41,945 bases of DNA from a virus (IMGVR_UViG_3300033067_000427:1-41945), one strand, 5' to 3'. Counted from the first letter of the stretch, positions 10,001 through 41,794 are shown. Notes: a model not told the origin generated them from the letters alone. Program-made: numbers and translations.

Positions 10001-10351
10001 TTACCTCTTGGTTTCTTTGACAATCATACTATAGATCTCTTTCTCTGGAAAGCAGATCAGTACGCGCCCATCATGCGTAAGGTAGGGTTGGCCTTCATAG
10101 GCTTCAAAACATACCTTATTCCCGACAACTGCACCCCAATTTTCTGGGCAGTCTCCAGGATCTTTACCAGCCAGTGGACCCACTGCAAGGACGGTGCCTA
10201 TATTGCCTGCACGTCTCGCATTTCTATCCTTTTCCGGGATAATGATTCCACCTTCTGTAACTTTTTCTTCCTTTTCAATTTCCACTAAGACTTGGAAACC
10301 CAAAGGGATTAAAGTTTCCCCTTGCTCCAATTGACATGCGATTTTAGCCAT
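10001..10351 (-). CDS. groES: GroES-like co-chaperonin (Cpn10)
   Basis: PLGFQVLVE, mobile loop TEGGIIIPE, GTVLAVGP, VGNKV.F..Y.G and final EKEI. Confidence 0.88.
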   Translation of the reverse strand: MAKIACQLEQGETLIPLGFQVLVEIEKEEKVTEGGIIIPEKDRNARRAGNIGTVLAVGPLAGKDPGDCPENWGAVVGNKVCFEAYEGQPYLTHDGRVLICFPEKEIYSMIVKETKR

Positions 10352-16890: not shown

Positions 16891-17401
16891 GTGTTTTTTC
16901 TCGCTAACGCTGCAAAAGCTTTTTCTTCACTATCCCTTACAGCGGTTAGGATCCCTTTTATCCCCTACAGAGGGTACCCACTTTCGGCCAAGTTTCGGCC
17001 ATTTTCTAGCTGTCCATTAACTCTGAAAAACTGGGGCATTCCGCGCCATTTACGGACACCCGAATCCCGCTGAGGGCGCGACTTCCGCGTGCGCTACGCT
17101 CACTTGGCGGACACCCCTATTCCCAGTCCGTTTATGGTACCTAATTCCTGCTTGGTGTATAAGCAAAACTAATGCTACCGTACACGGTCTGTTTCTTGGT
17201 TAAAACACACACTAACTGCTTGGAATGATCCCGAACGGTACTATAGCGGTAAAACAGAGACCTATGGGACCCAGTACCAGCACTTTTTACCATCGAGTTT
17301 TGGGATCGCAAGCAGGGGGGAGAGATGGGACCCAAATTTTCAAAAATCGAGCGCGCAGGCGTGGTGATTGTCTCGTGGCTCCCCTCTACCACTATGATTA
17401 C

Positions 17402-17430
17402 AGTATAGCACATTCTATTCCATTTGTCAA
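17402..17430 (-). promoter_or_regulatory. sigma70-type promoter (phage early consensus)
   Basis: TTGACA-17 bp-TATACT followed by GTAATCA, as in the plus-strand early promoters. Confidence 0.75.
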
Positions 17431-17703
17431 GTACTTAGGGGTAACTATGTATTCAGTAGAATCAAGCACTTACAGCACCCCCACTAAAAAGCATATATTT
17501 GCCCATAGTAAGCAGGCACATTGAGACATACATATAATAAACCTTACGTAACCACACCTATGTTTAAACCTAATTGGAGGGCCGTGGTTGAAAGAAAGAA
17601 CCCATAGGCCTAACTATAGTTAAGGGGGTGGAGGATTTATTCAATCATATTGACCTAGTAGCCCCACAGTTATGTTGTGGCGGGGCACATTGATTTTATC
17701 TCG

Positions 17704-17799: not shown

Positions 17800-18472
17800 G
17801 TGGGTACCTTTTAGCACATTAATAGGGCCATAGCTATACTGGGTACATGCGTGTATGTATGATAAGACATAATGTATGGTTATGTACCTATATGTATGTG
17901 TGATAGTAGTTAGTGTTGTATGCATCATAGGCATTTATGCTGCAATACAGGTAGAGTGCTATGCACTATATGCCTTTAAACTGAATTGAATGCCCGCACA
18001 GGCCGAAGGCCGAGCATCGCCCCCATGAATGGGCTTTAAACCGATTCTGAGGGGGCTGTGGGGCGTTTAGACACCTGGGTAGTAGGGTAGCCAGGGGTAA
18101 GGGCGTTTCACGCCTTAGACACGCTCAGATTAAGGAAAATAGGAACACAATAATTAAGACTAAGAACTATAATACCTGCGCAGTGTACCAGCAGGTTATA
18201 ACGACGAACCGATGGATATTCCTCGATGTTCGCTCTGCGGATATCGATCTTCGGATCGGTGAGTCATACGCTGGAATCTTCCTCACCGTTGGTTACAATA
18301 CAATTTCTCTGTGTTTAATCCCTATATAACTTGATCAGTAAGATTCTAGGTTAAAACGACGATATACGTATATTACCTGATATGTGTCTCCATAGCGTAT
18401 GTTTACTGTGTTCTAGCCTAGTGTTACGTTACAAAACATTACAGATTGATACGTATACACATTTCTGTTGCC

Positions 18473-20441: not shown

Positions 20442-20681
20442 ATGGCTGACCAACGAGGAATAGAGCAGGAACTAGACAGCTTACACATGGATCTCATGCG
20501 TCTAGCGTACCATGTACGCATAGTCCAGACGCAGCTAGATACAGCTAAGGATGTCTTGGATACAGCTAAGGTGTCATATGCTGCCATACTGAATCACGTA
20601 CTTGGCACGGATGTGCCAGTGGACAGACCTAAAGCAGTAGCGTCAAATACTAAGCCCATGCGGCAAGGGGATGTGTATTAG
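20442..20681 (+). CDS. Small coiled-coil hypothetical protein
   Basis: AAGGAG SD; LDTAK tandem repeat. Confidence 0.55.
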   Translation: MADQRGIEQELDSLHMDLMRLAYHVRIVQTQLDTAKDVLDTAKVSYAAILNHVLGTDVPVDRPKAVASNTKPMRQGDVY

Positions 20682-21240
20682 TATGCTAGATCAAAGTGTC
20701 AAATATTACCACAACTACCTCGCCAAAGTCGCCCGACAAATGGGCGGGGGATTTAGACGTGAGGATTTGATACAGGCTGGCTGGGTGGGTCTGCTGGAAG
20801 CTAAGGCCAGATACAAGCCTGAGTATGGTGTGCCACTCACAGCCTATGCAGCCAAAGATATACGTGGTAGGATGTTAGAGACCATCGCTAAGGTGTCAGG
20901 GGCCGTATCAGTGCCCGTCAAAGTGTACCGTACCAATGACACAGCTAGGACCAACAGCAGGGCTGTACCACTCATAGACGAGGTACATTGGGCCCATAGA
21001 CCAGGCACAGCCAATCCGCTGTTTGAAATCATGGAGCAGGATGAAGAGTTGTCCCAAAGACTCAAATTGCGTAGTATGTTGTCCCAATTAGAGTATCGGG
21101 ACAGAAAGATCATATCCGATAGATGGCTAGGTGAAGAGACTAAGACACTAGAAACCTTAGGCTATGAACTAGGTGTGTCAGCAGAGCGTGTGAGACAGTT
21201 AGAATTACGTGTGCTCGGTAATATGAGGGAGACTGTATGA
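20671..21240 (+). CDS. Phage sigma70-family sigma factor, RpoH (sigma32)-like
   Basis: Region 2 EDLIQAGWVGLLEAKARYKPEYGVPLTAYA; region 4 L..RDR.II..RWL.E..KTL..LG.ELGVSAERVRQLE, where GVSAERVRQLE matches enterobacterial RpoH. Confidence 0.85.
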   Translation: MCISMLDQSVKYYHNYLAKVARQMGGGFRREDLIQAGWVGLLEAKARYKPEYGVPLTAYAAKDIRGRMLETIAKVSGAVSVPVKVYRTNDTARTNSRAVPLIDEVHWAHRPGTANPLFEIMEQDEELSQRLKLRSMLSQLEYRDRKIISDRWLGEETKTLETLGYELGVSAERVRQLELRVLGNMRETV

Positions 21241-22760: not shown

Positions 22761-23705
22761 TTGCCTATGAGTATGCTTGAGTTCCTACGGGAGCATGGTG
22801 AGAAACCACGAAATAAATTTAGCAGAGATGACGCTGTCAAACTCTTCGATGATGTGTTCGGTAAGCACATTGTAGAGCCTAAGGTAGTTCCAGTAGGAAC
22901 GAACGCAGTTAATTCTCTGCTCGGATTATATACTAAGAAATATTTAAAAGTCGCGGTGATTGACAACAAAGCAGATTTCACTATCGCACTCGTAGGTAAA
23001 GGCATATGTTTCGACAGTGGTGGTATGAATATCAAGACTGGCGGATACATGAGTGAAATGAAATTCGACAAGCTCGGTGCACTTAATGTTATGGCTGTCG
23101 GTAGAGAGCTATTGAAGGTGAAGAAAGCGAAAGCTAATTTCATTATCATCGCACCATTCGCAGAGAATATGGTCAGTGAGAAGTCTCTGTGCCCTGATGA
23201 CGTTCTTGAGTACACTGTGGGTAAGAAAACTCTTCGCGTTGAGATTGAGAACACTGATGCTGAGGGTAGACTTGTACTGGCTGATGGATTGCTAGAGGCT
23301 CAAGCACGTGGTGCAGATTTAATTATTGATGTTGCTACACTCACAGGTGCAGTAGTATATGCGTTGGGTGATCTCGTCACAGGTATTCTTGGTGATCAGG
23401 AATTAGCGCAAGTGATGCTAGAGCACTTCGATAAAAAGAAAGAAAAGGCCTGGATTTTACCTATATTTAAGCAACATCGTGATGCACTTGAACATCAGAA
23501 CAAAGACGTCGCAGATGTCTTGAACTCAGCGAAAGCAGGTAAAGCCGGTGCGAGTACAGCTGCTGCATTTTTAGAAAAATTCATCCACGTCAAAGGTGTT
23601 CAATGGTTGCATTTAGATATCGCAGGCTCAGCGGATACGAAAGGTAAAGCGCGTGATGGTATTGCGAAAGTACTGCTGAGTTTTGTAAAGGAAATGGCTT
23701 CATGA
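22761..23705 (+). CDS. M17 leucyl aminopeptidase (catalytic domain, N-domain largely absent)
   Basis: LVGKGICFDSGG, MKFD, NTDAEGRLVLAD, DVATLTGA and WLHLDIAG. Confidence 0.92.
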   Translation: MPMSMLEFLREHGEKPRNKFSRDDAVKLFDDVFGKHIVEPKVVPVGTNAVNSLLGLYTKKYLKVAVIDNKADFTIALVGKGICFDSGGMNIKTGGYMSEMKFDKLGALNVMAVGRELLKVKKAKANFIIIAPFAENMVSEKSLCPDDVLEYTVGKKTLRVEIENTDAEGRLVLADGLLEAQARGADLIIDVATLTGAVVYALGDLVTGILGDQELAQVMLEHFDKKKEKAWILPIFKQHRDALEHQNKDVADVLNSAKAGKAGASTAAAFLEKFIHVKGVQWLHLDIAGSADTKGKARDGIAKVLLSFVKEMAS

Positions 23706-24933: not shown

Positions 24934-25059
24934 ATGGGTGTTTTAGAATCGTTGATTTTAGGTCTGATGGCGATGGGGTGGGTAGGTCTGACGGCAGTCT
25001 TTGCACTTGAAGTTCGTCGGCAGCAGCAAGAAGAGCGCGACTCCAGGAAGAAAAAATGA
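24934..25059 (+). CDS. Small TM protein (41 aa)
   Basis: MGVLESLILGLMAMGWVGLTAVFALEVRRQQQ...; overlaps the next start (ATGA). Confidence 0.55.
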   Translation: MGVLESLILGLMAMGWVGLTAVFALEVRRQQQEERDSRKKK

Positions 25060-25895
25060 GCCATCGTGCCTGGGTAGGCGGGCTGACAGTAATAATAGTT
25101 GCAGAGGCGCTGTTGACTGGAGTAATTCCACTAACACGCAGCGAACTATATGGTGAGTTAGCTAAGGGTTCGAGCCTTATCTATCTTATGGCTGCGTGGG
25201 CTTTCGCTAACATCTTTATCCTTGAAGCTATTCAGGCGGTGAAAGGATATGTAGTCCTTAGGGCCTCTTTGAAGGCCAGGGAAGCACGTACGCATGAGAT
25301 TTGTACACATCTCACCAATCTCACCAGTGAGGCTGAAATCGCACCAAATGCACCACAGAGGGTACAAGAGGATATTAAGCTTAGCTATATCAATAGGTAT
25401 ACCGCATGGTCAGAGTACCTTATCAGCGGTATCATCCTAGTGTACTTGATTGTGATGAACTGGGATCACACATCCTTGATCCTAGCCTCGTTAATCTACT
25501 CTGTCATTAGTATAGCCATAGCGTACTTATTCAGCCCTAGGCTGACCGAGGCTGAGAAACACGTACAGCGCACAGAGGCTGAGTTTAGGGATAGCCTGGT
25601 AACCTCTTTGACCCCCATAGGCCTAAATCCTGCCCAGGACGCCAACATTAAGGCTGGCAAGATAGGCCTACACTTTAACTTATTCACGAAGCTACAGGGC
25701 TCTGTATTGCAGATTCTGCCCTTCGTCTTGTTAACGCCAGCCTTGCTGGCCCACACCATAACCTTCCAAGAGATTATGGAACACGCTAATACATTCAGCA
25801 TTATTGTGGTCAATGCTGCCATTCTAATCAGTATCTTCCCTGTTTTGATCAGAGGCAAAGCCAGCGAAGAACGGGTAAAGGAGCTACATAAGTGA
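25056..25895 (+). CDS. SbmA/BacA-like (ABC-membrane-type) peptide transporter domain
   Basis: Multiple TM helices; NAPQRVQEDI resembles SbmA QRVQED, and QRTEAEFRDSLV resembles QRVEAAYRKELV. Confidence 0.7.
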   Translation: MSHRAWVGGLTVIIVAEALLTGVIPLTRSELYGELAKGSSLIYLMAAWAFANIFILEAIQAVKGYVVLRASLKAREARTHEICTHLTNLTSEAEIAPNAPQRVQEDIKLSYINRYTAWSEYLISGIILVYLIVMNWDHTSLILASLIYSVISIAIAYLFSPRLTEAEKHVQRTEAEFRDSLVTSLTPIGLNPAQDANIKAGKIGLHFNLFTKLQGSVLQILPFVLLTPALLAHTITFQEIMEHANTFSIIVVNAAILISIFPVLIRGKASEERVKELHK

Positions 25896-26013: not shown

Positions 26014-26247
26014 ATGTCAGAAGTAGTAGTAGCCTTTGTAAAGTATAAGGAAATGCGCGGTAAGATTGACGCACTGACCGACGAGCAACTGTTCCAAATG
26101 CGGTTGCTGTTATTAGAAAATGAGAACATAGACCTCAAGTCACCTGAATGGGGCACATGGATAGATACGAACCGAGTAGAACAAGAGCCAGTCAGGCCGG
26201 GTGCAGAGATCTTTAACATTAAAAACTATGTGAGGAAGGTAAAATGA
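26014..26247 (+). CDS. Hypothetical protein
   Basis: 77 aa; first ORF after the 25936 promoter. Confidence 0.55.
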   Translation: MSEVVVAFVKYKEMRGKIDALTDEQLFQMRLLLLENENIDLKSPEWGTWIDTNRVEQEPVRPGAEIFNIKNYVRKVK

Positions 26248-27017
26248 TCAGCGAAAACACATTAGCGTACTTGCGACATAAACTGGCTGTAGTGGTGTTT
26301 GGTGTAGCGATACCTGTGGTCTTATTCTTTAACGCATACCCAGGTGGTGTGCATGAAATGGTGGAGAGGGTTAAGTTCAGCTATCGGATGGGCGGGATAC
26401 ACAAGACCGTGAGAGTTGTGTTGCACGAAGAATTCGGTGGATTACAAACAGATGATTATGTCAATGCTGTTCGTACCATTGAAAATGCCCCAGCTGATAC
26501 ACGGGTATTGGTGGTAGTGAAGGAGAACTTTGGTGGTGATGTATCACTGTTGTTACCAATCATGGAAGCTGCTCAAAAGAGTACAGCTGTGGTAGTTTTA
26601 ACAGTGCAACGCTTCGGATTCAGCTGTGGTGGAGATATCATTCTGAGTGGTGACTATGCTATCATCCCAAACGACAGCTTGTTAATGTACCACACTGGCC
26701 AATTTAATGGTACCACAGTAAAAGAGCCAACTCTGTTTACACCTGCGTACATGAAGTGGGCATATCAAGTAGTTAACTTATTGACGTCTCCATATAAAGC
26801 TTGGATGACCAGTGAGGAACGTGAAAAGTTCAAGACTGGTGCATCAATCTGGATTACGGGTGGTGAGCTGTGCAGTAAGCGTGATGGTAGAGATGTAGAT
26901 GTATTGTTCCAATATGACGGCGGTTGCGTCATTAAAGGTAACAAGCCAGGGTACTTAGAGGTCTTAGAGCGAGTTGAGGCTATGATCAACGCAGAAGTTG
27001 CTTCAAAACATAACTAG
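26244..27017 (+). CDS. Membrane-anchored ClpP/crotonase-fold serine peptidase
   Basis: N-terminal TM; NFGGDV oxyanion loop, GFSCGGDIILSGD (catalytic Ser) and SLLMYH (His). Confidence 0.7.
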   Translation: MISENTLAYLRHKLAVVVFGVAIPVVLFFNAYPGGVHEMVERVKFSYRMGGIHKTVRVVLHEEFGGLQTDDYVNAVRTIENAPADTRVLVVVKENFGGDVSLLLPIMEAAQKSTAVVVLTVQRFGFSCGGDIILSGDYAIIPNDSLLMYHTGQFNGTTVKEPTLFTPAYMKWAYQVVNLLTSPYKAWMTSEEREKFKTGASIWITGGELCSKRDGRDVDVLFQYDGGCVIKGNKPGYLEVLERVEAMINAEVASKHN

Positions 27018-30888: not shown

Positions 30889-31488
30889 ATGGCAACACCA
30901 ACAGAAAATGAAACTGGCTTGAATGATGCACTGGAGAATGAGAGCTTCTCAATAAGCATCCGAAGGGATGAAATCATTGCGGTAGATATCACGTTATCCA
31001 CTGAGGTGAACCTGTCGTTCCAGTATGAGAAATTATTCGCGACTCTGCGATCCCTACCACAGAACTGCACGACAGTGAACTTGTTCTTGGCTAGCTTTGG
31101 CGGTTATATGCAGGGTCTAGTGCCACTGTTCAACGCCTTCAAGTATTGCCAGGTACCAGTAGATGTGTATGTCACTGGTGAGTGCTACAGCGCAGGGGCT
31201 ATGCTGGCATTGTCAGGGCGGTCTTTGACCATGATGCCTAACACTATGCTGATGTTCCATAATTCCAGCGGTGGTGAGTTCGGCAAGGGCAATGAACTGT
31301 ATGACGCAGTAATGCACGGCACCAAGCACACACGCGGTGTATTCAAGAACATGGTGACTCCGTTCCTGTCTAACGCGGAGCTAGAAGGGTTGATGCACGA
31401 CAAGGATACGTATATCCACTGGGACCAACCTGACTTGCAGAAGAGAATCAGACGACACTTTAACCCAAAGAAGGAGGTAAAGAAATGA
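30889..31488 (+). CDS. ClpP-like serine protease
   Basis: LASFGG, GECYSAGAMLALSG (Ser), MLMFH (His) and G.DTY-like Asp region. Confidence 0.82.
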   Translation: MATPTENETGLNDALENESFSISIRRDEIIAVDITLSTEVNLSFQYEKLFATLRSLPQNCTTVNLFLASFGGYMQGLVPLFNAFKYCQVPVDVYVTGECYSAGAMLALSGRSLTMMPNTMLMFHNSSGGEFGKGNELYDAVMHGTKHTRGVFKNMVTPFLSNAELEGLMHDKDTYIHWDQPDLQKRIRRHFNPKKEVKK

Positions 31489-31902: not shown

Positions 31903-34011
31903 ATGACCATAGCAGTAGTGTTTGACTTAGAGACTCAGACGGCAACGTCTTATAAGCGCAAGGCCAATAGCCTGGATAAGCGTAATAAGATCATTGTGTC
32001 TGCGTATCAAGTCATAGACATGACTACTGGAGAAACGCACCCTGTGAGGATTGAGTACAGTCGTACCGGTATCCCGCAGGTCAGCCTACCCTACGAGCAC
32101 ATGGATGTATTGGTGGGCCAGAACATCAAGTTCGACTTGCTGTACATATGGGATGATCCTCACTTTAGAGAGTGGCTACGCTGCGGTGGCAAGATCTTTG
32201 ATACCATGGTAGGGGAGTACCTACTCACTGCCCAAGCCCACACCTACGCCTCTCTAAATGAGCTGTCGTTAAAGTATGGTGGCTCCATCAAGGATGATAA
32301 GGTTAAAGAGTTTTGGGATGCTGGGATTGATACCGCTGATATAGATCCAGATATCCTCCTACCATACGCAGAGTATGATATCCTCAATACCACGAATGCC
32401 TATATAAGCCAAATGGGTGCGATTAGAAGCGAGAACATGAGACCCCTAGTAGAGGGGTATATGGACCACCTCTTAGCCCTCACTGAGATGGAATTTAACG
32501 GCTTATACTTCGATCTAGAAGAGGCCCAGAAGCTACGTACTGTGCTTGAGGAAGAGAGAGCGGGCTATCGTACCATCCTGCAGGGGATCACCGACACTAT
32601 TGCAGAGCGTTCAGGTGCCCCACAGTTCGAGCTTAACTTCGAATCCAAGGACCAGTTGAGTGCTATTATCTTCAGCACCCCCATAAAGATCATTACCCGC
32701 ACTATAGACGGAGTGTACGGCCCTAAGACCAAAAAGGCAGGCCAGCCCAAGGTTAAGCTGATCACTACTGAAACCCTGCTCAAAGGCTTTGACATCGACC
32801 CTAAGCTTAGCCGCCCCTGCGCTAAGAAGGGCCTGTACTCTACCGACGAGAAGTCGCTGGTGTCGATCCAAGAGGGTATCCCTGCCGACCACGAAGCCCA
32901 GCTGTTCGTAGCAACTCTCCTGAAGTACCGGACTGTTCAGAAGAAGATCGCGACTTACTTATATGGCCAATCCTCTACTGGTGCTGAGACTGGTATGATC
33001 CCTCTAGTCTATAAGACTGACGGTTGTATCCACCACACCCTAGACATGGTACAGACTAAGACCGGGCGGGTCAATGGGCGTAACCCCAACATGCAGAACG
33101 TACCTAGGGAACTTCGCCATCTGTTCAGCAGTCGCTATGGTAAAGATGGCTTGATTTTAGAATTTGACTATTCTTCGATGGAAATCGGTGTATCAGCGTA
33201 CCTGACTCAGTCAGAGCGCTTGATGGAAGACTTACGCAATGGTGTTGACTTTCACTTAAAGAGGGCAAGTTATGTGGCAGAGATCTCCTATGAACAGGCA
33301 GTGGCGAACTACGCACGAAATCCAGATGTATGGAAGGAAAAGAGAAGAGAGGCCAAAGCGATCTCATTTGCGAAGGCGTATGGCGCGCACCCTGAGAAGA
33401 TTTCTGAAGACACGGGTCTACCCCTTGCTGTCGTCGAGAAAGTGTTCAAAGCCGAAGACACCGAGTACCCCGAAATCGCAGAGTTCAATACCCAAGTGGA
33501 GGCTCAGGCTAAACTCAATCGCATCCCATCTCAGAAACTATTGCAGATACGTGACAAACAGACGCGGGCTTACTCGACAGTTCCAGGTGAACAGGAAGGA
33601 ATCGGTTACTATCGTAGTGCGACGGGGAAGAAATATCATTTTATCGAGAGGGGTAGCGACTCGGAGAAATTAAGGGCTTCGGGCAAGGGCATCTTCCGCT
33701 ACTTCAAATCAACAGAGGTGGCTAACTATCCCGTGCAGGGAACCGCTGCCGATATTATGGCATTCACCGTGTCAAAAGTATTCAGATACCTATTGACTTT
33801 GGATAGTCCAGACATTAAGATGATAAATGAAGTACATGACTCTTTGGTACTTGACGTTAAGGACCAGGCTACTGCCGACTTACATGGACCTAAGATTAAA
33901 GAGATCTTAGAGGGTGTAAAAGATGCAACAAAATCGATCGTGGGGCTTGACTTTAATGTTTTCATTCCTGTAGACTTTAAGTATGGGCAGGTATGGGGAG
34001 GGGGAGAATAG
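31903..34011 (+). CDS. DNA polymerase family A (3'-5' exonuclease plus polymerase)
   Basis: ExoI FDLET, ExoII QNIKFD, ExoIII YAEYD; TKTGR..GRNPNMQN; motif A DYSSME; motif B RREAKAISFAKAYG; NYPVQGTAAD; motif C VHDS. Confidence 0.93.
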   Translation: MTIAVVFDLETQTATSYKRKANSLDKRNKIIVSAYQVIDMTTGETHPVRIEYSRTGIPQVSLPYEHMDVLVGQNIKFDLLYIWDDPHFREWLRCGGKIFDTMVGEYLLTAQAHTYASLNELSLKYGGSIKDDKVKEFWDAGIDTADIDPDILLPYAEYDILNTTNAYISQMGAIRSENMRPLVEGYMDHLLALTEMEFNGLYFDLEEAQKLRTVLEEERAGYRTILQGITDTIAERSGAPQFELNFESKDQLSAIIFSTPIKIITRTIDGVYGPKTKKAGQPKVKLITTETLLKGFDIDPKLSRPCAKKGLYSTDEKSLVSIQEGIPADHEAQLFVATLLKYRTVQKKIATYLYGQSSTGAETGMIPLVYKTDGCIHHTLDMVQTKTGRVNGRNPNMQNVPRELRHLFSSRYGKDGLILEFDYSSMEIGVSAYLTQSERLMEDLRNGVDFHLKRASYVAEISYEQAVANYARNPDVWKEKRREAKAISFAKAYGAHPEKISEDTGLPLAVVEKVFKAEDTEYPEIAEFNTQVEAQAKLNRIPSQKLLQIRDKQTRAYSTVPGEQEGIGYYRSATGKKYHFIERGSDSEKLRASGKGIFRYFKSTEVANYPVQGTAADIMAFTVSKVFRYLLTLDSPDIKMINEVHDSLVLDVKDQATADLHGPKIKEILEGVKDATKSIVGLDFNVFIPVDFKYGQVWGGGE

Positions 34012-34715
34012 TGTCATACGTATATTTAGCGAGTCCGTATTCAGATCCTAGCGAAGCAGTTCGCTTAGATCGCGAACGCGTTATATCACGAATAGGGTTT
34101 AAACTAATCGCAGACGGCTGGAATGTGTTCTGCCCTATAACTATGTCACATCGTCTCCAAGATCTCCATGATACCGAGGCTCACTTTAGGGCTGACCGCC
34201 GAGAGATTACCCACGAAGAGTGGATGAGGGTTGACTACAGTATGCTGGAGCATGCTAGCAAACTGTTAGTCGCGAAGTTAGATGGATGGGATACTAGTCG
34301 CGGTGTGCTCTTAGAGATCGAGTATGCGCGCAAGCACGGTAAACCAATACTGTACTTAGATACTAAGGGGGAAGTAGTGAGCATCGAGCAAGTGCCTACA
34401 GTTGAGGCAGGTATTAAAGATTCGGTAGGGAAAGCTCCCCTATCATTGATTCCATATGAAGCACTAGAGGCCATTGCCCGAGTGCGTGAGTATGGGAATC
34501 AAAAATATAAAAGTCCATCTATATGGAGAGGGCATCCAGAAAAGCACGGAGAATTCGTAGAGGCGGCCATGCGTCACATCGCTAAGTACAACGATGCGAG
34601 GCTATATGGCTTAAGATCTACTAATGATGAGGAATCGGGAATAGATCACTTGGACCACGCAATCACATCACTGGCATTGGCTATAGCCTTAAGGGGAGAT
34701 ACAACGCATGAGTAA
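34011..34715 (+). CDS. Fusion of a DUF1937/nucleoside deoxyribosyltransferase-like domain and a DUF5664 dATP/dGTP diphosphohydrolase-like domain
   Basis: N-terminal YLASPYS..FCPI..SH..W...D..GWDTSRGV..EIEYA; C-terminal KD..GK..LSLIP..GNQKY..W..AAMRH..DEESG..HL.HA. Likely GTG start at 34011. Confidence 0.75.
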   Translation: MSYVYLASPYSDPSEAVRLDRERVISRIGFKLIADGWNVFCPITMSHRLQDLHDTEAHFRADRREITHEEWMRVDYSMLEHASKLLVAKLDGWDTSRGVLLEIEYARKHGKPILYLDTKGEVVSIEQVPTVEAGIKDSVGKAPLSLIPYEALEAIARVREYGNQKYKSPSIWRGHPEKHGEFVEAAMRHIAKYNDARLYGLRSTNDEESGIDHLDHAITSLALAIALRGDTTHE

Positions 34716-36621
34716 AGCAGTTAATAAGTTCAAGGACAAGTTCGCCTCGAAGAAGCGAGAGGTGTTGACTATGTCTGAGTACTTGGAGAAAATCAAGACA
34801 GACCCGTCACTGTACGCTACGCCAGCAGAGCGTCTGCTGAAAGCTATTGGTGAACCCACGGTCTTAGATACTGCTAAGGATGAACGCCTTGGGCGAATCC
34901 ATGGCAATCGTCTTATCCGTACGTACAAACCATTTGAAGAAATCTATGGTATTGAGCGTGTTGTAGAAGAGATCGTATCTTTCCTACGCCATAGTGCTCA
35001 GAACCTAGAAGAATCAAAGCAGATCCTATACTTCCTTGGGCCGGTCGGTTCAGCAAAGTCTACGATTGCTGTCATATTAAAAGAGCTGATGGAACAAGAA
35101 CCCATCTATGTCCTTCAGGGTGCCCCCATGCAAGAGTCGCCCTTGGACTTCTTCCGCCCTAGTGACGCGAAGGATCTTGGAATACCAGCCCGCTATTTAG
35201 GTAAGACGACCTCTTCATGGGCGTTAAAGCGTCTTGAGGAATTCGAGGGTGACATCACTAAGTTTAAGGTCGAGAAGATCTTCCCTAGTGAGGCTCGTCA
35301 GATTGCATTGGGTGTAGTGGTAGCAGGTGATGAAGCTACCCAGGATATCTCTACCATCGTAGGTAAAGTAAACATTCGCGCCTTGGAACATTTCCCAGCG
35401 GATGATCCTGATGCATACAGCTACTCCGGTGGTCTGTGCCGTGGTAACCAAGGTATGATGGAATTCATTGAGATGTTCAAGGCTGACCCTAAGATCTTGC
35501 ATCCCCTGTTGACTGCTACCCAAGAAAAGAACTTTAAAGGTACCGAGGCTCTGTCGTCTATGCCGTTCCATGGTATCATCATGGCGCACAGTAATGAGAC
35601 AGAGTGGGCTCAGTTCCGCTCTAACAAAGCTAATGAAGCGTTCTTAGATCGAGTCTACTTGGTTAAGGTTCCCTACTGCTTACGTATCAACGAAGAGGTA
35701 GAGATCTACAAGAAGATGCTGCGTGGCAGTGAGTTGAGTGAAGCTCCGGTAGCACCTGGTACCTTAGAAATGCTTGCGTCATTCTCAGTGTTAAGCCGTA
35801 TCGAGAATCCTGAGAACTCAAGCTTGATCACTAAGGCGCACGTGTACAATGGTGAAGCATACAAAGATAAAGACGTAGAAGCTAAGTCTCTGTTAGAGTA
35901 CCGGGAAGAGGCCAGTCAGCAAGAGGGTTTCAGCGGACTGTCTACACGTGAAGCGTTCAAGTTACTGTCGAGGGTATTCAACTTCGATTACACCGAGATT
36001 GGTGCTAATGCTGTGCACTTGATGACAGTACTGGATCAAAGCATCGTCGATTTGTTCCAAGGTGAAGATGATCAGACTGTGGCTCGATCTATCTTGAACG
36101 AAGTGTTGAAAGAGGACTACTACCAACTGATCTCTAAAGACATTCAGACAGCGTACTTAGACAGCTATCATGCATATGGTCAAAGCTTGTTTGATCGGTA
36201 CTTGCTGAATGCTGACAACTGGATCCAACAACGTGGGTACAGAGATGTTGAAACTGGGCAAATGCTCGATCTTAAGACACTGGATACTGAGTGCTCTAAG
36301 CTAGAAAAACCAGCTGGCATTACTAACCCTAAAGACTTCCGTAATGAAGTCGTTACCTTCTGCTTGCGCTACAGAGGTAAGCATGGTGGGCAGAATCCAG
36401 ATTGGACCGACCATGAGCAAATCAAGAACGTGATCGAGAAGACCATGTTCGAGAAGACTGAGGATCTTATCCCAGTGATCTCTTTCGGTAAGAAGGGTTC
36501 ACCTGAAGAGGAAGAGAACCATAAGAAGTTTGTTCAGCGGATGAAAGACAGGGGCTATACCGAGAAGCAGATTCGTCTGCTGGTACAATGGCAAATGCAG
36601 TATCAGAAGTCTAAAGAGTAA
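34708..36621 (+). CDS. yeaG: PrkA/YeaG family AAA+ serine kinase/ATPase
   Basis: LEESKQILYFLGPVGSAKS, DISTIVGKV, DDPDAYSYSGGLCRGNQG..EFIEMFKA, AHSNE, NEAFLDR, VPYCL and PKDFRNEVV; full-length 637 aa. Confidence 0.93.
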   Translation: MSKAVNKFKDKFASKKREVLTMSEYLEKIKTDPSLYATPAERLLKAIGEPTVLDTAKDERLGRIHGNRLIRTYKPFEEIYGIERVVEEIVSFLRHSAQNLEESKQILYFLGPVGSAKSTIAVILKELMEQEPIYVLQGAPMQESPLDFFRPSDAKDLGIPARYLGKTTSSWALKRLEEFEGDITKFKVEKIFPSEARQIALGVVVAGDEATQDISTIVGKVNIRALEHFPADDPDAYSYSGGLCRGNQGMMEFIEMFKADPKILHPLLTATQEKNFKGTEALSSMPFHGIIMAHSNETEWAQFRSNKANEAFLDRVYLVKVPYCLRINEEVEIYKKMLRGSELSEAPVAPGTLEMLASFSVLSRIENPENSSLITKAHVYNGEAYKDKDVEAKSLLEYREEASQQEGFSGLSTREAFKLLSRVFNFDYTEIGANAVHLMTVLDQSIVDLFQGEDDQTVARSILNEVLKEDYYQLISKDIQTAYLDSYHAYGQSLFDRYLLNADNWIQQRGYRDVETGQMLDLKTLDTECSKLEKPAGITNPKDFRNEVVTFCLRYRGKHGGQNPDWTDHEQIKNVIEKTMFEKTEDLIPVISFGKKGSPEEEENHKKFVQRMKDRGYTEKQIRLLVQWQMQYQKSKE

Positions 36622-36636
36622 GTAAGAACGGGAGTT

Positions 36637-36684
36637 TGCTGGTTTCCTCCTCTCCCCCTAAAAACCAGCACTTACATGGGGAGG
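36637..36684 (+). promoter_or_regulatory. Hairpin whose loop is complementary to the yeaH SD (possible pseudoknot)
   Basis: Stem TGCTGGTTT/AAACCAGCA; loop TCTCCCC can pair with GGGGAGG at 36678-36684. Confidence 0.5.
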
Positions 36685-36690
36685 CTGTTG

Positions 36691-37863
36691 ATGACTATCA
36701 TTGTAGATAAACGTAAAGGCATGAAGAATGCCGATGCAGGTAACCGGAAGCGATTCATTGATCGCTGCAAGGATGGCTTGCGTAAAGTCGTAGAGAAAGA
36801 ACTTAAAGATAAGAGCATCAAAGACATTGGTAAAAAGGACATCAAGGTCCGTGATACTACCGGTGTTCTAGATGAGCCCTCCTTCCATAATGATTCCACT
36901 ACCGGCAACGCTCCAGTTGTTCGTGGAAATAATCGTCGCTACCACAAGGGCGACAAGATCCAGTCCTCTTCGGGGGGTCAAGGCCAAGGTTCTAAGGCCA
37001 GCGACGCCATGAAAGAATTCTCGTATACCCTATCCAAGAAAGAGTTTCTCGACATCCTATTCGAAGATATGGCCCTGCCTAATTACGTCAAAGAGTCATT
37101 GACCTCAGATAAGAAGTTCCGTTGGAAGAGAGCCGGTGTGGGCCCTGATGGTCCTATCGTGCGTCTCAACCTGCTGAAGACTATGCTTACCTCCATTGGT
37201 AGAAAGTTCGCCGCTAAGGGTGCTGCCGAAGAAGGCGAGGAAAAGAAAGTTCCCTTCATCACTGAGGAAGATTTACGGTTTAACATTTACACTAAACGAC
37301 CAATCTTCATCCGGCATGCTGTAATATTCGCAGTCATGGATATTTCCGGATCTATGGGCGATGGTGAGAAAGCCCTAGCCAAGCGGTTCTTCCTTCTACT
37401 ATACTTGTTCCTAGAGCGCCAGTACGAATCTGTTGACATTGTCTGGATAATGCACGATACTGAGGCACATGAGGTAACTGAGCAAGTGTTTTTCTCAGAG
37501 ACTTCTGGTGGTGGTACCATTGTGTCGTCTGCGTACGAGATGGTTAACAAGATCCTAAACGAACGCTACGATGTCACTAAGACCAACGTGTACATGGCAC
37601 AGTGTAGTGATGGCGACAACTTTGAGGACGAGACTGGATTGATCGAGTACTTGGAAAAGAACATCATTCCTAAGGTGCAGTACCTAGCTTATTTGCAGGT
37701 GCAAGAGCAGGCCAATAGCTGGCGCATGCCTAATATAGGCTTACTAAGGATGTTTGACACGGCTTTTCGTGGCACGCTTAAGGTAGGTTATGGGTTTGCC
37801 TCAACACTAGATGAAGTGTTCCCAGTGCTCAAGCATTTGTTTCGTAAGGGGAGGGAAGAGTAG
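36691..37863 (+). CDS. yeaH: YeaH/YhbH (DUF444) vWA-domain protein
   Basis: IIVD.R...N.KRFI, EP.F, LFEDM.LP, PFI...DLRF, MIDAS-like MDISGSM, AKRFF.LLYLFL, ETSGGGT.VSSA and SDGDN; start MTIIVD after GGGGAGG. Confidence 0.92.
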   Translation: MTIIVDKRKGMKNADAGNRKRFIDRCKDGLRKVVEKELKDKSIKDIGKKDIKVRDTTGVLDEPSFHNDSTTGNAPVVRGNNRRYHKGDKIQSSSGGQGQGSKASDAMKEFSYTLSKKEFLDILFEDMALPNYVKESLTSDKKFRWKRAGVGPDGPIVRLNLLKTMLTSIGRKFAAKGAAEEGEEKKVPFITEEDLRFNIYTKRPIFIRHAVIFAVMDISGSMGDGEKALAKRFFLLLYLFLERQYESVDIVWIMHDTEAHEVTEQVFFSETSGGGTIVSSAYEMVNKILNERYDVTKTNVYMAQCSDGDNFEDETGLIEYLEKNIIPKVQYLAYLQVQEQANSWRMPNIGLLRMFDTAFRGTLKVGYGFASTLDEVFPVLKHLFRKGREE

Positions 37864-39414
37864 ATGTGTAAAGAATTACTATTTTCTGGGCAACATTGGG
37901 ATTTGGAACTTATCGATAAGATCTGGAATCGTATCGAGGAGATCAACAAAGAGAAATACCAGTTGGATTACTTCCCACCCCAAATTGAGGTGGTTACTGC
38001 AAACCAGATGATCCATTACTCGTCTATGCATGGCTTACCTTTTATGTACGATCACTGGTCGTTTGGTAAGGGATATGTAGAGAACCACAAGGCCTACAAC
38101 GCTGGGCAGACTGGCTTAGCCTATGAGATGATCATCAATACTAATCCATCTGTGTGCTACATCATGGAGAACAACGATGCCACTATGCAGGCGTTGGTTC
38201 TAGCCCATGCTGCGATTGGACACAGTTCATTCTTCAAGAACAACTATGGGTTCAAGACCTGGACATCCCCTGACACTGTGTTGACATATGCGAAATTCGC
38301 GAAGGAGTATGTAGCTGAATGCGAGAAGCTATATGGTCCTGAGGCTGTAGAAAAGATCCTAGATGCAGCTCACTCACTACAGTTCAATGGTATTGATCGG
38401 TATGTTCGCACCAGGGAACTACGCGATACTAAGATGGATGAAATGAAGGAAGAGCTAGCCAGGTACCAAGCCATGCTAGATGATCCCGTCTGGAGAACTA
38501 TCCCTGCGAAAGCCCATAGAAAGGAAGATAAGACCTCATTGTTTCCTTGGCCATTCCCAGAAGAAAACTTACTGTACTTCATTGAGAAGAACAGCCCAGG
38601 CCTAGAGAAGTGGCAGCGTGAACTCGTTCGCATCGTGCGTTACTTTGCACAGTACTTCTACCCACAGATTCAGACTAAACTGATGAATGAAGGGTGGGCC
38701 AGTTTCTGGCATTACACTCTAATGACTGACCTCCATGAGGAAGGGTCCATCTCTGATGCGAGTATGCTGTCATTCTTACAAAGTCACACCTCTGTCTGCA
38801 ATCAGCCGCAGCCGAAGACTCGTACGATGGATGGCAAGGTAGTTGACGTACTGACGTCCTCTATAAACCCCTATGCCTTAGGGTATAAGATGTTCAAGCG
38901 CTTGCGACAGGCGTGTGAGAATCCTACAGAAGCGGACTACAAAGAGTTGCCGACGATATGCAATACGAATTGGATAGAGACCTTGAAAGGTATAGCTGAG
39001 GATTACAATGACTCAACATTCATAGGGCAGTTCCTCACCTCTGACCTGGTAGAAGAGTTCGGGTTCTTGATTCTTAAGCCGGCTGTGCCGGATAGGATCG
39101 AAGCTAAGTTCAAGATAAAGAAAGTTCAGGTAACTGAAGTACAAGATAAAGATAAACTGAGCGCAATTCGTAAGCAACTAGCCGAACAGTACGCATTCGG
39201 ATCTAAGTTTCCTACGATAGAAGTAGTGGACTATGATGTTAAAGGGGATAGGTCATTGACTTTGCTCCATAGACCCTATAACATGCAAGTATTGGAGGAA
39301 GAGACTGCCATGGCATGTATGAAGAGTTTGACCAAGCTATGGGGGTATCCAGTTCGGTTACGGACAATCGATGAAGATGGTGAAGAGATCACCAGATCAC
39401 GACGACATTTTTAA
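37864..39414 (+). CDS. ycgB: SpoVR/YcgB family protein
   Basis: HWSFGK, GLAYEMIINTNP, QALVLAHAAIGHSSFFKNN, PEENLLYFIEK, YFYPQ.QTKLMNEGWASFWH and INPYALG. Confidence 0.93.
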   Translation: MCKELLFSGQHWDLELIDKIWNRIEEINKEKYQLDYFPPQIEVVTANQMIHYSSMHGLPFMYDHWSFGKGYVENHKAYNAGQTGLAYEMIINTNPSVCYIMENNDATMQALVLAHAAIGHSSFFKNNYGFKTWTSPDTVLTYAKFAKEYVAECEKLYGPEAVEKILDAAHSLQFNGIDRYVRTRELRDTKMDEMKEELARYQAMLDDPVWRTIPAKAHRKEDKTSLFPWPFPEENLLYFIEKNSPGLEKWQRELVRIVRYFAQYFYPQIQTKLMNEGWASFWHYTLMTDLHEEGSISDASMLSFLQSHTSVCNQPQPKTRTMDGKVVDVLTSSINPYALGYKMFKRLRQACENPTEADYKELPTICNTNWIETLKGIAEDYNDSTFIGQFLTSDLVEEFGFLILKPAVPDRIEAKFKIKKVQVTEVQDKDKLSAIRKQLAEQYAFGSKFPTIEVVDYDVKGDRSLTLLHRPYNMQVLEEETAMACMKSLTKLWGYPVRLRTIDEDGEEITRSRRHF

Positions 39415-39429
39415 CTTTAGGAGAGTAGT

Positions 39430-39972
39430 ATGAGTACAAGTGTAGTAACAGTAAAGATGATTGAGAACAGCGTATCAATCGCCAAGAACGGTGGCGGTAG
39501 TTATGTCGGCACACGGATCACGTATGATGAAGGTGGTCAGATTCGCGTTAAGGGTTTGCATCCTGTAGCCTTATCGAAGAATCCTACCTTGCTATCAAAC
39601 CTAGAAGCGCTATCATCTGGTGGACTCCCTAAGACTGTTGTCTTAACCACAGAAAAGGTAGATGGGTTTGTGAACTTTATTAGCTTGGTTCCAACGGATG
39701 GTGATGTCGATATGACCAGCACATCAACAACCGACACAGGTACAGCACAAGCTACGACGTCAACGACTACGCCCACACGTACATTTGCACCTCGCAATAA
39801 TGTTGGTACAGGTGGGCACAGTAGTAACGGACGTGACGAGGCCATCTCTAAGGCTGTCGCTTTGAAAGCAGCGGTGGAGTTCGGATCTGCCACAGGCGTT
39901 ACCGATGTAGATGCTGTGATCGCTATGTCAGAGAAATTCAACACTTACCTATCCGGTAAGACTGGAGAGTAA
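39430..39972 (+). CDS. Putative ssDNA-binding/replication protein
   Basis: OB-like beta N-terminus, low-complexity Thr linker and C-terminal helix; position before the exonuclease. Function inferred from context. Confidence 0.45.
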   Translation: MSTSVVTVKMIENSVSIAKNGGGSYVGTRITYDEGGQIRVKGLHPVALSKNPTLLSNLEALSSGGLPKTVVLTTEKVDGFVNFISLVPTDGDVDMTSTSTTDTGTAQATTSTTTPTRTFAPRNNVGTGGHSSNGRDEAISKAVALKAAVEFGSATGVTDVDAVIAMSEKFNTYLSGKTGE

Positions 39973-39973
39973 T

Positions 39974-40291
39974 ATGGCTATTGCAACTCTTACATTTGAT
40001 CTATCAGTACCGGAGGATGCAGCTCGCTTTGAGTTGCATTCTCAAGCTGAAAAGCTGTATTGGGCTGTATGGGAACTAACCAATCAGGATCTGCGCCAGA
40101 TTGACAAGTATGATTCGTTGGAAAGTGTACCTCATACAGCATTAGAGTTCCTAACCGATGTCGATGGGAACCCTATCACACTGAAGACTACCACAGATAA
40201 AATTGATGGTGGTGCGATGGTGAGCATTATTCGTGATGTGATCCATGAGAAGTTGAATGAGGCCAAGGTATCATTAGAGTTGTTTAGCTAA
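39974..40291 (+). CDS. Hypothetical protein
   Basis: M..ATL.FDL..PED motif; GGAG SD. Confidence 0.55.
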   Translation: MAIATLTFDLSVPEDAARFELHSQAEKLYWAVWELTNQDLRQIDKYDSLESVPHTALEFLTDVDGNPITLKTTTDKIDGGAMVSIIRDVIHEKLNEAKVSLELFS

Positions 40292-41109
40292 TGTTGGTCT
40301 GCATCGACTCCGACATAATTGTCTATAGGGCAGCCTGTGCCGCACAGAAGACGTACTATGTGGTGTACAATGACGAAGGGGATGTCACTAGCACATTCCC
40401 TGTCGGCATGACTGCAACTGAGATCCTAGCTGTTAAGCCGGAGCTCAAGGGCCATCTGACTGCAGAGGTAGAAGCTGAACCGGTATCGCATGTGTTACGT
40501 GTTACTCGGCAGATGATCAAAGCCATTATGCGTGAAGTCTCAAATCAGTACGGTGGTGATCATTTATTTCGTCTGTACTTAACTGCAGATGATCATACCA
40601 ACTTTAGGTATGACGTAGCTAAGACTAAGCCCTACAAGGGCAATCGTAGTACTCCTAAGCCAGTGCACTACCATAGCGTACGTACTTATCTTAGAGAGCA
40701 ATGGAAGGCCGTAATGGTCAGTGGGATGGAAGCTGATGATGCTATAGGGATCGATGCTACCACAGCTCACAAGGCCCTTATCGTGACGATAGATAAGGAT
40801 CTAGACATGATACCAGGATATCACTACAACTTTGTAAAGAAAGAGTTCTACAAGGTCAGTGAGTTCGATGCGTACAAGAACTTCTACCGACAGATGCTGA
40901 GTGGTGATACGATCGACAACATACCTGGGTTACCAGGGCTAGGTAAAGTTAAAGCAGAGAAAAGACTAGAGGGTGCCAAGACACGTGAGGAACTTGAGGC
41001 CCTAGTCCGAGCAGAATACAAGAAAGCTGGCTTCAACGAAAATTACTACAACGAGATGCGTGATCTGTTGTGGATAAGGAGAGAGAATGTCGATGAATTT
41101 AGTGCTTAA
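40291..41109 (+). CDS. 5'-3' exonuclease (T7 gp6/FEN-like)
   Basis: IDSDIIVY, NFR, YKGNR, EADD, IDKDL and GD.IDNIPGLPGLGKVKA. Confidence 0.92.
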   Translation: MLVCIDSDIIVYRAACAAQKTYYVVYNDEGDVTSTFPVGMTATEILAVKPELKGHLTAEVEAEPVSHVLRVTRQMIKAIMREVSNQYGGDHLFRLYLTADDHTNFRYDVAKTKPYKGNRSTPKPVHYHSVRTYLREQWKAVMVSGMEADDAIGIDATTAHKALIVTIDKDLDMIPGYHYNFVKKEFYKVSEFDAYKNFYRQMLSGDTIDNIPGLPGLGKVKAEKRLEGAKTREELEALVRAEYKKAGFNENYYNEMRDLLWIRRENVDEFSA

Positions 41110-41794
41110 GTGTAGTCGCTGTAAGTTACATAAGAGCCAAGATGAGTTTGGTAGTAATGCTGCTCGCCCCAATGGCAAGAATAATGAATGCGCGGTCTGC
41201 AAACGAATTAGCAGCGCAGAGTATAAAGCTCGAAATCCAGATAAGATTCGAGCAGCACACAAGTTGTATTACCAAAAGAACAAAGCGGTGGTCGATGCAA
41301 AGCATGCCGAGTGGCGGAAGGAGAATCCGTGGTATTTTACTGACTACCAGACATTAGAGCAGTACGGTGAGGTGATCAGGGATCCCCTAGCTAAGACAAA
41401 GGACAGGTTTAGGAGAGCGCGAGCGGTGGGGTACCGGAGCGGTCTAGAGGTTCAGATTGCTAGGCAGCTGGAAGAGGCTGGGATCATGTTTGCGTACGAG
41501 GCCATCAAGATCTCCTACGTAATTCCTGAGTCCTCTCATGTGTATACCCCCGACCATCTCATAGTAAGGGAGGATGGGTCAATTCTGATAATTGAGACTA
41601 AAGGTATTTTTGAATTGGCGGATCGTAAGAAGCATCTATGGATTAAAGAGCAGCATCCAGAGCTAGACCTCCGTTTCGTGTTTCAAAATGCTAATGCTAA
41701 GTTACGCAAAGGTGCAAAGAGCACATACGGTGAATGGTGCGAAAAAAATGGTTTCCTTTATGCCCATAAGACAATACCTGAGGAGTGGTTATGA
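41087..41794 (+). CDS. T7 endonuclease I-like resolvase with N-terminal zinc-finger extension
   Basis: YRSGLE, YTPD, IETKG, DRKKH...QHPELDLRFVF and W.EK.GF; N-terminal CSRC...CAVC. Confidence 0.88.
   Translation: MSMNLVLKCSRCKLHKSQDEFGSNAARPNGKNNECAVCKRISSAEYKARNPDKIRAAHKLYYQKNKAVVDAKHAEWRKENPWYFTDYQTLEQYGEVIRDPLAKTKDRFRRARAVGYRSGLEVQIARQLEEAGIMFAYEAIKISYVIPESSHVYTPDHLIVREDGSILIIETKGIFELADRKKHLWIKEQHPELDLRFVFQNANAKLRKGAKSTYGEWCEKNGFLYAHKTIPEEWL

Follow-up and report, generated by a model that had tools for sequence, protein, structure and literature searches.

A PrkA-YeaH-SpoVR module in a clade of 44-49 kb phages and its possible role in protein breakdown

The window analysed here is a whole virus record (IMGVR_UViG_3300033067_000427, or G000; 41,945 nucleotides) of a podovirus-like phage, and it carries on its plus strand three clustered, intact genes of the families that form the bacterial yeaG(spdA)-yeaH-ycgB or prkA-yhbH-spoVR module. 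The first gene, prkA/yeaG (spdA; 34708..36621), encodes an AAA+ ATPase of 637 amino acids; the second, yeaH, encodes a DUF444 vWA protein whose longest open reading frame (ORF) spans 36676..37863 (395 amino acids) and probably starts at its second ATG at 36691, since single-base deletions at 36682-36690 in sequencing runs X3 and X12 lie upstream of this codon and homologues begin there; the third, spoVR/ycgB (37864..39414), encodes 516 amino acids. All three ORFs are free of internal stops, and their GC content (0.45-0.47, or 0.52-0.54 at third codon positions) resembles that of the phage helicase and DNA polymerase genes. A preliminary description of this DNA had reported three intact genes with signature motifs, with prkA overlapping the upstream gene and ycgB abutting yeaH, and these statements were borne out: prkA overlaps by 8 nucleotides a fused nucleoside-deoxyribosyltransferase-like/dATP-dGTP diphosphohydrolase gene (33993..34715, plus strand), and the first base of spoVR directly follows the yeaH stop. 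Hidden Markov models likewise placed the three products above cut-off in the Pfam families that it had named, PrkA matching PF08298 (494 bits, E 2.9e-148) and PF06798 (175 bits, E 2.4e-51; cut-off 25), YeaH matching PF04285 (330 bits, E 2.3e-98), and SpoVR matching PF04293 (436 bits, 2e-130) and PF24755 (67 bits, 1.9e-18). Among NCBIfam models, PrkA exceeds the cut-off of PRK15455 (NF011999; 904 bits, cut-off 576), YeaH stays below those of PRK05325 and TIGR02877 (best 346 vs 396), and SpoVR below that of PRK11767 (569 vs 679). By these profile scores, the phage YeaH is a divergent DUF444 member and not a cellular equivalog.

Most of the positions that are near-invariant in the three families are kept in the window, namely 169 of 189 in PrkA, 44 of 47 in YeaH and 79 of 85 in SpoVR, a few of the misses lying in indel regions. 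In PrkA, the Walker A motif GPVGSAKS occupies residues 111-118, and K117, S118, E255, N296, R315 and R414 are kept, where we take E255 to be the Walker B residue, N296 sensor 1, R315 the arginine finger and R414 sensor 2. The loop 203-211 (about 35314-35340), near-invariantly KTEPGDENNQD, reads VVVAGDEATQD or similar in a 7-member subclade (the window, P0122, P0123, P0126, P0127, P0129 and P0133) and is unaltered in the related viral loci L003, L004 and L053 and in most of the phage clade. The idea that this change represents the loss of the B. subtilis T217/S219 phosphosites was rejected, since the peptide given in PMC9512850 maps these sites to V218/K220, which are the same as in proteobacterial homologues. 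Residues 421-637 were modelled as all-helical (predicted local distance difference test, pLDDT, 84; predicted template modelling score 0.59), with no kinase, peptidase or protease fold among the structural matches listed (best Z score 5.5). A full-length homologue of the phage PrkA is present in the PDB as 'Serine protein kinase' of the PrkA family (9xip, 9xiq and 9xir; E 1.5e-46; 30 chains in 3 entries, counts that indicate oligomers), and YeaH and SpoVR have no solved relative there by sequence. Reports on the own activity of PrkA conflict: B. subtilis PrkA alone slowly digested casein and had no kinase activity (PMC9512850), pure monomeric B. anthracis PrkA neither cleaved the test substrates nor acted as a kinase (PMC13001217), and E. 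coli YeaG was reported to phosphorylate itself and AceA. Since no peptidase or kinase was among the matches listed for the PrkA C-terminus and pure monomeric B. anthracis PrkA did not cleave the test substrates, the cutting subunit may be sought in a partner.

The candidate partner is SpoVR, which carries HAAIGH at 115-120 and NEGWA at 275-279 and was modelled with a pLDDT of 82. A VIA search with this model listed 50 matches, all of them zincin or gluzincin-fold entries, which we assign to M1, M2, M3, M4, M32, M49, M61, DUF885 and the inactive TAF2. The best match was 3o0y (Z 12.9, root-mean-square deviation 4.2, 203 residues aligned), and a gluzincin (zinc-peptidase) fold is predicted for SpoVR, resembling DUF885 (3o0y, 3u24, 3iuk), M1 (3cia, 1z1w) and M49 (5zum) proteins. 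H115 and H120 lie on helix 106-126 and E276 on helix 272-292, giving two histidines on one helix plus a distal Glu, as in the gluzincin arrangement of His...His and distal NEG[W/F]A Glu; the residues H115, H120, E276, E88 and Y337 are invariant in 244 of 244 SpoVR sequences from cells and phages. In contrast to the gluzincins, with which identities are 5-15%, SpoVR has HAxxGH and lacks the catalytic Glu of HExxH or HExxGH (the latter being the motif of M49 dipeptidyl-peptidase III), position 116 being Ala in 243 of 244 sequences, and a peptidase role is putative. Because Ala replaces this Glu, we do not file SpoVR as a member of the gluzincin metallopeptidases (clan MA(E)). No sequence-level peptidase signal was found in SpoVR in Pfam (E<=5, 47 members), PDB sequences or Atlas features. 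The models therefore point to a putative metal site without the standard base, which would make SpoVR either a non-canonical peptidase or a pseudo-peptidase.

YeaH keeps the DISGS motif of the metal ion-dependent adhesion site (MIDAS) at 222-226, including D222-S224-S226, together with T281 and D312. The predicted complex of YeaH with SpoVR and zinc scored 0.74, vs 0.00 for the best of 3 controls, with runs agreeing in at least 83% of contacts and a partner pLDDT of at least 67; 116 of 157 solved pairs and 2 of 215 mismatched ones attained the mark used for such scores, counts that are rough for predictions made with alignments and zinc as here. The modelled interface comprises YeaH 6-30 and 65-97, including the invariant D11, R13, R30, E67, P68, G77, N86 and G92, and suggests that YeaH binds SpoVR through its conserved N-terminal arm. 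Since this interface uses the arm, the vWA domain would remain available for contacts with the ATPase or the substrate.

The same gene order as in the window, that is primase-helicase-ClpP-PolA-dNTPase-prkA-yeaH-spoVR-exonuclease-endonuclease, was found in L003, L004 and L053 at 35-58% identity, and the synteny that the preliminary description had proposed to look for is thereby present in divergent phages. A record search that took 50 of 82 viral trio loci gave six complete 44-49 kb trio genomes (G002, G004, G006, G007, G011 and G031), and an independent terminase search gave a seventh complete small trio phage (G120; 45.6 kb, 99%). As the carriers are only 44-49 kb long, the trio takes up ~10% of their genome. 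In the SpoVR tree (115 rows, FastTree), the window falls in a 40-row clade (support 99) that holds, besides the window, 14 small-phage or short loci plus 25 top database matches, with no row labelled cellular; in the PrkA tree (92 rows, IQ-TREE quick LG+G4), it falls in a phage-only clade of 38 rows (support 100); and in the concatenated trio tree (42 rows, mixture model), all 11 small-phage rows lie on one side of a branch supported at 100. Note that all branch supports are of the SH-like or SH-aLRT kind, the root is weak, cells are represented by Pseudomonadota alone, the top database matches have no genomic context, G120 stands outside the trees, and P0124 and P0125 (odd-length records) as well as P0013 were left out. 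Four 'viral' loci (L011-L013 and L015) look cellular (GC 0.61-0.62); two of them, L011 and L012, cluster with the cells and were counted among them. The nearest named cellular homologues reach 57-58% identity for PrkA and up to 46% for SpoVR. Between the window and L003, L004 and L053, amino acid identity is 57-59% for PrkA, 43-45% for YeaH and 47-50% for SpoVR, compared with 41-47% for PolA and helicase, and the proportion of synonymous differences (pS) is saturated (0.78-0.84). In all pairs tested, pS is at or near saturation and its nonsynonymous counterpart (pN) is 0.08-0.41, estimates that rest on distant pairs. Since identity is at least that of PolA and helicase with pS saturated, constraint on the trio has been no weaker than on the replication core. 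By sequence comparison, the trio is under purifying selection within a phage-only clade of small phages, and the long-term domestication proposed earlier gains support from the three trees, which hold no cellular member in the small-phage clade, from this selection and from the GC content shared with the neighbours; the outcomes that would have spoken for recent capture, near-identity to a host locus and loss of selection, were not what we found. The window lineage itself sits on a long branch of the concatenated tree (1.28 vs 0.21-0.63 for its sisters). The trio was also considered as a core set of the wider phage family and rejected as such, since only 3 of the 38 relatives found by terminase/portal (1 of the 17 complete ones) carry it, as do 3 of 80 helicase loci. 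As a separate observation, alphaproteobacterial cellular trios fall among large-phage sequences and not with the other cellular group; with the root insecure, this placement hints at exchange of trios between phages and cells.

Small trio phages usually also encode peptidases. Each of the 7 complete ones (>=90%) has at least one peptidase of the ClpP-like, M17 or M48 type, as do the fragments G085, G087 and G096, vs none of 30 complete trio-less relatives (14 found by helicase and 16 by terminase/portal); note that M48 joined this count after being seen in trio genomes. Among the seven, two or three ClpP-like genes occur in four (G002, G011, G031 and G120), M17 in G004 and G007, and M48 in G004, G006 and G007. 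Over the 50 trio records, many being large-phage fragments, ClpP was found in 25 and M17 in 10, five M17-bearing large records lying outside the SpoVR search. The window itself has a ClpP-like serine peptidase (30889..31488, plus strand) between helicase and PolA, also present in L003, L004 and L053, with S101 and H124 kept, and a second ClpP-like peptidase (26244..27017, plus strand) with a hydrophobic N-terminus and its Ser and His kept. In the presumed triad, Ser and His are invariant in 7 of 7 sequences and Asp is not, PF00574 gives 43.6 bits for one copy, and both genes are far below the ClpP equivalog cut-offs. An M17 leucyl-aminopeptidase catalytic domain (22761..23705, plus strand; PF00883, 232 bits), devoid of the N-terminal domain, keeps K80, D85, K92, D103, D166, E168 and R170, which are invariant in 5 of 5 aligned sequences and which we presume to be the metal and catalytic residues. 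In L006-L008, L010 and L327, an aminopeptidase lies next to the trio.

Taken together, we read the intact module as one ATP-driven unfoldase-adaptor-peptidase machine that would recycle host protein for phage replication in starved cells, a reading to which we give about even confidence. The PrkA ring would grip and unfold the substrate, the YeaH vWA domain would link ring, substrate and SpoVR, and SpoVR would cut or, if catalytically dead, would leave the cut to a ClpP-like or host peptidase; M17 and host peptidases would finish peptides to amino acids, so that host cytoplasmic protein would be turned through peptides and amino acids into phage growth, and the placement in the replication transcript would free the module from host RpoS control. 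The preliminary description had proposed a remodelling machine in general terms, and this part can be sharpened: protein breakdown is favoured because of the SpoVR fold, the YeaH-SpoVR prediction, the accompanying peptidases and a recent study of E. coli YeaG, renamed SpdA, which is needed for broad, non-specific turnover of cytoplasmic protein in carbon starvation (PMC13684143, PNAS 2026). This turnover supplies amino acids and ATP at the cost of slower regrowth and of biosynthetic enzymes (PMC13684143). Moreover, yeaG, yeaH and ycgB show cofitness across six bacteria (10.1101/072470), and in evolved P. putida mutations of yeaG and of ycgB can replace one another (10.64898/2026.07.20.739708). 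The phage order is that of most proteobacterial operons, and the ATPase, MIDAS and SpoVR motifs of the bacterial module (E. coli, Shewanella, Pseudomonas, B. subtilis) are kept in the phage; the window trio differs in being phage-encoded within a replication module, in its separate clade, in YeaH and SpoVR scores below the equivalog cut-offs and in the PrkA loop altered in its subclade. Tentatively, and with clear reserve, one may even imagine an unrecognised class of ATP-dependent protease, composed of an AAA+ ring, a vWA adaptor and a zinc peptidase with a non-canonical general base, for example E88 or a residue lent by YeaH. This protease would be the blade that bacterial starvation proteolysis has been missing, and a clade of 45-kb phages would carry it, together with downstream peptidases, as a compact 'autophagy' kit, triggered by the phage, for growth in starved hosts. 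If protein breakdown by the module holds true, it would represent a new ATP-dependent protease architecture and a route by which lytic phages propagate in bacteria that do not grow; a small phage with exactly these three genes in one compact operon, plus peptidases, provides a minimal parts list for SpdA/YeaG-dependent starvation proteolysis, with K117 and E255 (PrkA), D222/S224 and D11/R13 (YeaH) and H115/H120/E276/E88 (SpoVR) as the residues of interest.

Several points weigh against this reading. The module is described here from genes, models and comparisons. On the side of SpoVR, the catalytic Glu is missing, the Z score of ~13 is borderline for a helical protein, the inactive homologue TAF2 is among the structural matches, and Foldseek with the SpoVR model against PDB and BFVD gave no gluzincin or peptidase match at E<=0.001, its one match being an unnamed viral protein of 617 amino acids. 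On the side of PrkA, the slow digestion of casein by the B. subtilis protein alone would make a partner unnecessary (PMC9512850), E. coli YeaG was reported as a kinase, and the specificity of the window PrkA may differ because its subclade altered 20 otherwise near-invariant positions, including loop 203-211. The co-occurrence of trio and peptidases comes from about two sub-lineages, one with ClpP and the other with M17/M48; the small trio phages have no peptidase common to all of them, and M17 is absent from most large trio-phage records. Finally, bulk proteolysis also destroys biosynthetic enzymes that the phage might need (PMC13684143), and neither yeaH nor ycgB nor phages come up in the main text of the SpdA paper (PMC13684143).

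Other explanations share part of this evidence. The same machine might be re-aimed at a few host targets (defence, regulators or stalled complexes) for takeover or counter-defence, which we judge unlikely: the trio does sit in a replication module and not in a metabolic cluster, its window lineage combines the long branch with the changed loop, and AAA+/vWA pairs of MoxR type remodel specific clients, but the loop is the usual one in L003, L004, L053 and most of the clade, an aminopeptidase beside the trio in five loci fits complete digestion better, and the cellular counterpart is non-specific; the counter-defence role raised earlier found no support here. The comparison with MoxR/RavA-type pairs (RavA-ViaA, CbbQ-CbbO) comes from a weak PrkA-RavA sequence match and from an AAA+ gene lying beside a MIDAS vWA gene in both; the trio differs by its third partner with a predicted peptidase fold. 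It is also rather improbable that SpoVR is a pseudo-peptidase acting as scaffold or peptide sensor, the trio being unfoldase and adaptor only and a phage ClpP-like or host protease doing the cutting. Such an arrangement would agree with the absent Glu at 116, with ClpP-like genes keeping Ser and His in G002, G011, G031, G087, G120 and the window, and with the restriction of ClpP-like genes to SpoVR-positive terminase/portal relatives (2/3 vs 0/35; n=38); however, G004, G006 and G007 are complete and have the trio with no ClpP, and neither E88 nor the putative metal ligands vary among cellular and phage sequences.

The main idea of the preliminary description, a reprogramming of dormancy or starvation physiology, would take the form of a kinase-based signalling relay acting on starvation, dormancy or nitrogen physiology; it seems quite improbable to us. 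Phosphorylation by YeaG of itself and AceA has been reported, Price et al. proposed a signalling pathway, and a marine virome study classed spoVR among auxiliary genes for sporulation (PMC8940887); against this stand the lack of kinase activity in the B. subtilis and B. anthracis proteins (PMC9512850, PMC13001217), the all-helical C-terminal model with no kinase among the matches listed, and the peptidase neighbours, which signalling leaves unexplained. In addition, non-sporulating Pseudomonadota provide the closest cellular homologues and host most of the related phages in culture, and a reprogramming of dormancy or sporulation received no support here. Still less probable is that the phage module serves to poison the host SpdA machine, or to compete with it, and so to spare biosynthetic enzymes. 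Starvation proteolysis costs the cell such enzymes and delays regrowth, which a lytic phage might want to prevent; yet all three genes with all their catalytic motifs are kept under purifying selection, and an inhibitor would not need 4.7 kb. As for a chimeric assembly or a recent capture of a host operon, we regard its probability as negligible. Contigs of run X2, from the same study as the likely source of the window, cover 33852-35893 and 39076-39796 with 0 differences, and those of run X3 (another study) cover 34609-35630, 36128-37621 and 39263-39575, spanning the upstream, prkA/yeaH and downstream junctions at ~93-95% identity. Continuity was thus confirmed at three junctions; no single listed contig spans the whole and no bridging piece is among those listed for yeaH/spoVR, where the same order is seen in L003, L004 and L053. 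Host-operon captures do occur, since the phage record LAU1 has host-like yeaGH at its end, without spoVR (it was not counted as a phage trio), but the bridging contigs, the order conserved in three divergent phages, the low identity to cellular homologues and the phage-only clade refute this explanation for the window.

The trio as such is not new in phages: GenBank records already hold it, and PHROG families (22605, 19072 and 35217) exist for all three genes. Its presence in a phage is thus of little novelty, as the preliminary description had cautioned for the case of existing annotations. Among 50,697 GenBank phage records, 17 match PrkA, 29 YeaH and 9 SpoVR, and these last 9 hold all three genes, in genomes of 69-642 kb. 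In IMG/VR, a pattern gave 411 matches, 352 of them coding for a relative of SpoVR, and the whole trio is found in 75 of the best 80 viral SpoVR loci. The large-phage carriers include Ralstonia phage RsoM2USA (344 kb; ORF28-30), the huge phages LR745206, LR756502, LR756504 and LR756511, and Thermus phages phiLo and Lalka. RsoM2USA has all three genes in the same order as the window and falls outside its clade in both single-gene trees (SpoVR and PrkA), and the phiLo/Lalka copies are ~28% identical. The RsoM2USA paper lists PrkA and SpoVR separately and not as a module (PMC8504454), and the marine virome study counts spoVR under sporulation (PMC8940887). In the open literature, we found no study of a phage PrkA-YeaH-SpoVR module, nor any paper that brings SpoVR and 'zincin' together, and in the example examined that contains both 'SpoVR' and 'metallopeptidase' the terms were unrelated. 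What is new is the carrier, a clade of 44-49 kb phages with peptidase companions, the trio being known in large phages.

Profiles of Pfam and PHROG identified portal, terminase, capsid, holin and amidase genes in the window, which has its structural and lysis genes on the minus strand at 1-17 kb, the plus strand from 18 kb onwards being devoted to early functions and replication. Its portal is 27-39% identical to portals of Alcaligenes, Pelagibacter and Roseobacter phages. CheckV gives a completeness of 26%; the record is probably nearly complete, because complete relatives with which it shares TerS, TerL, portal, scaffold and capsid measure 44-49 kb. Related DNA occurs in freshwater-sediment, river and wastewater runs (X3, X4 and X12); in X12, an RNA run, parts of a related phage are present as contigs, which cannot show transcription. 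The family A DNA polymerase PolA (31903..34011) lies upstream of the trio, and the region 3' of it (39430..41794) comprises a 180-amino-acid gene (39430..39972), a 105-amino-acid gene, a 5'-3' exonuclease (40291-41109) and endonuclease I (41087-41794), all on the plus strand. The flanks named in the preliminary description hold for PolA, dNTPase and exonuclease; its 'SSB-like' (single-stranded DNA-binding) label for 39430-39972 is unsupported by profiles, this unannotated gene having no match in Pfam, PHROG or NCBIfam and positional homologues only. Related strains in runs X3 and X12 have a 169-nucleotide insert right after spoVR (window 39415-39418).

For a promoter of its own, the scan gave the trio only weak sigma-70 matches (9-10 of 12 positions), and the one plus-strand terminator-like site lies downstream at 41314. 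Control by a hairpin or anti-Shine-Dalgarno element between prkA and yeaH was considered and dismissed, the sequence folding worse than all 200 shuffles (z +2.1). Strong promoter repeats occur at 17.4-24.5 kb, away from the trio; these near-consensus sigma-70 promoter-like repeats, TTGACA-17-TATACT followed by GTAATCAA, are found throughout the early region, at 17395-17431 on the minus strand, pointing leftward, and at 18472, 19181, 19957, 21440 and 24422 on the plus strand. The window also encodes, on the plus strand, a short sigma-70-family factor (20671..21240) whose best match, RpoH/sigma-32, is far below cut-off and which has no BLAST homologue in the six complete relatives; it could activate host chaperones and proteases or phage middle genes. 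An SbmA/BacA-like membrane protein of a peptide-transporter family (25056..25895, plus strand) has a homologue in G011 (L352:12571-13401).

Among the minor observations, chaperonins are unusual for 45-kb phages, and GroES was found in the window, G002, G006 and G011, with full GroEL in G002 and a locus similar by eye in L004 (15098-16714). GroES adjoins the portal/scaffold genes (window 10001-10351, L344:9145-9465, L345:11867-13489 and L357:6869-7216, loci including GroEL). PADLOC anti-phage defence profiles matched 0 of 5 proteins. In a jumbo-phage fragment, a protein resembling TROVE/Ro60 by eye (L001:4006-5787) is encoded upstream of a trio. A lone Clp/Cdc48-like AAA domain (~285 amino acids; L355:12010-12882 and L361:6430-7269) occurs in G004 and G007, which bear M17 and lack ClpP. 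DUF7220 is present in three trio phages (L355:6101-6373, L361:12136-12402 and L348:13741-14049) and adjoins the deoxynucleoside triphosphate diphosphohydrolase gene in at least G004 and G007. Finally, G031 (47 kb) encodes a DsbD/CcdA-type membrane protein and a thioredoxin-like gene (L349:840-1496 and 2954-3442), and G004 encodes a stand-alone GGDEF diguanylate cyclase and an S-adenosylmethionine lyase (L353:1365-1787 and 749-1195).

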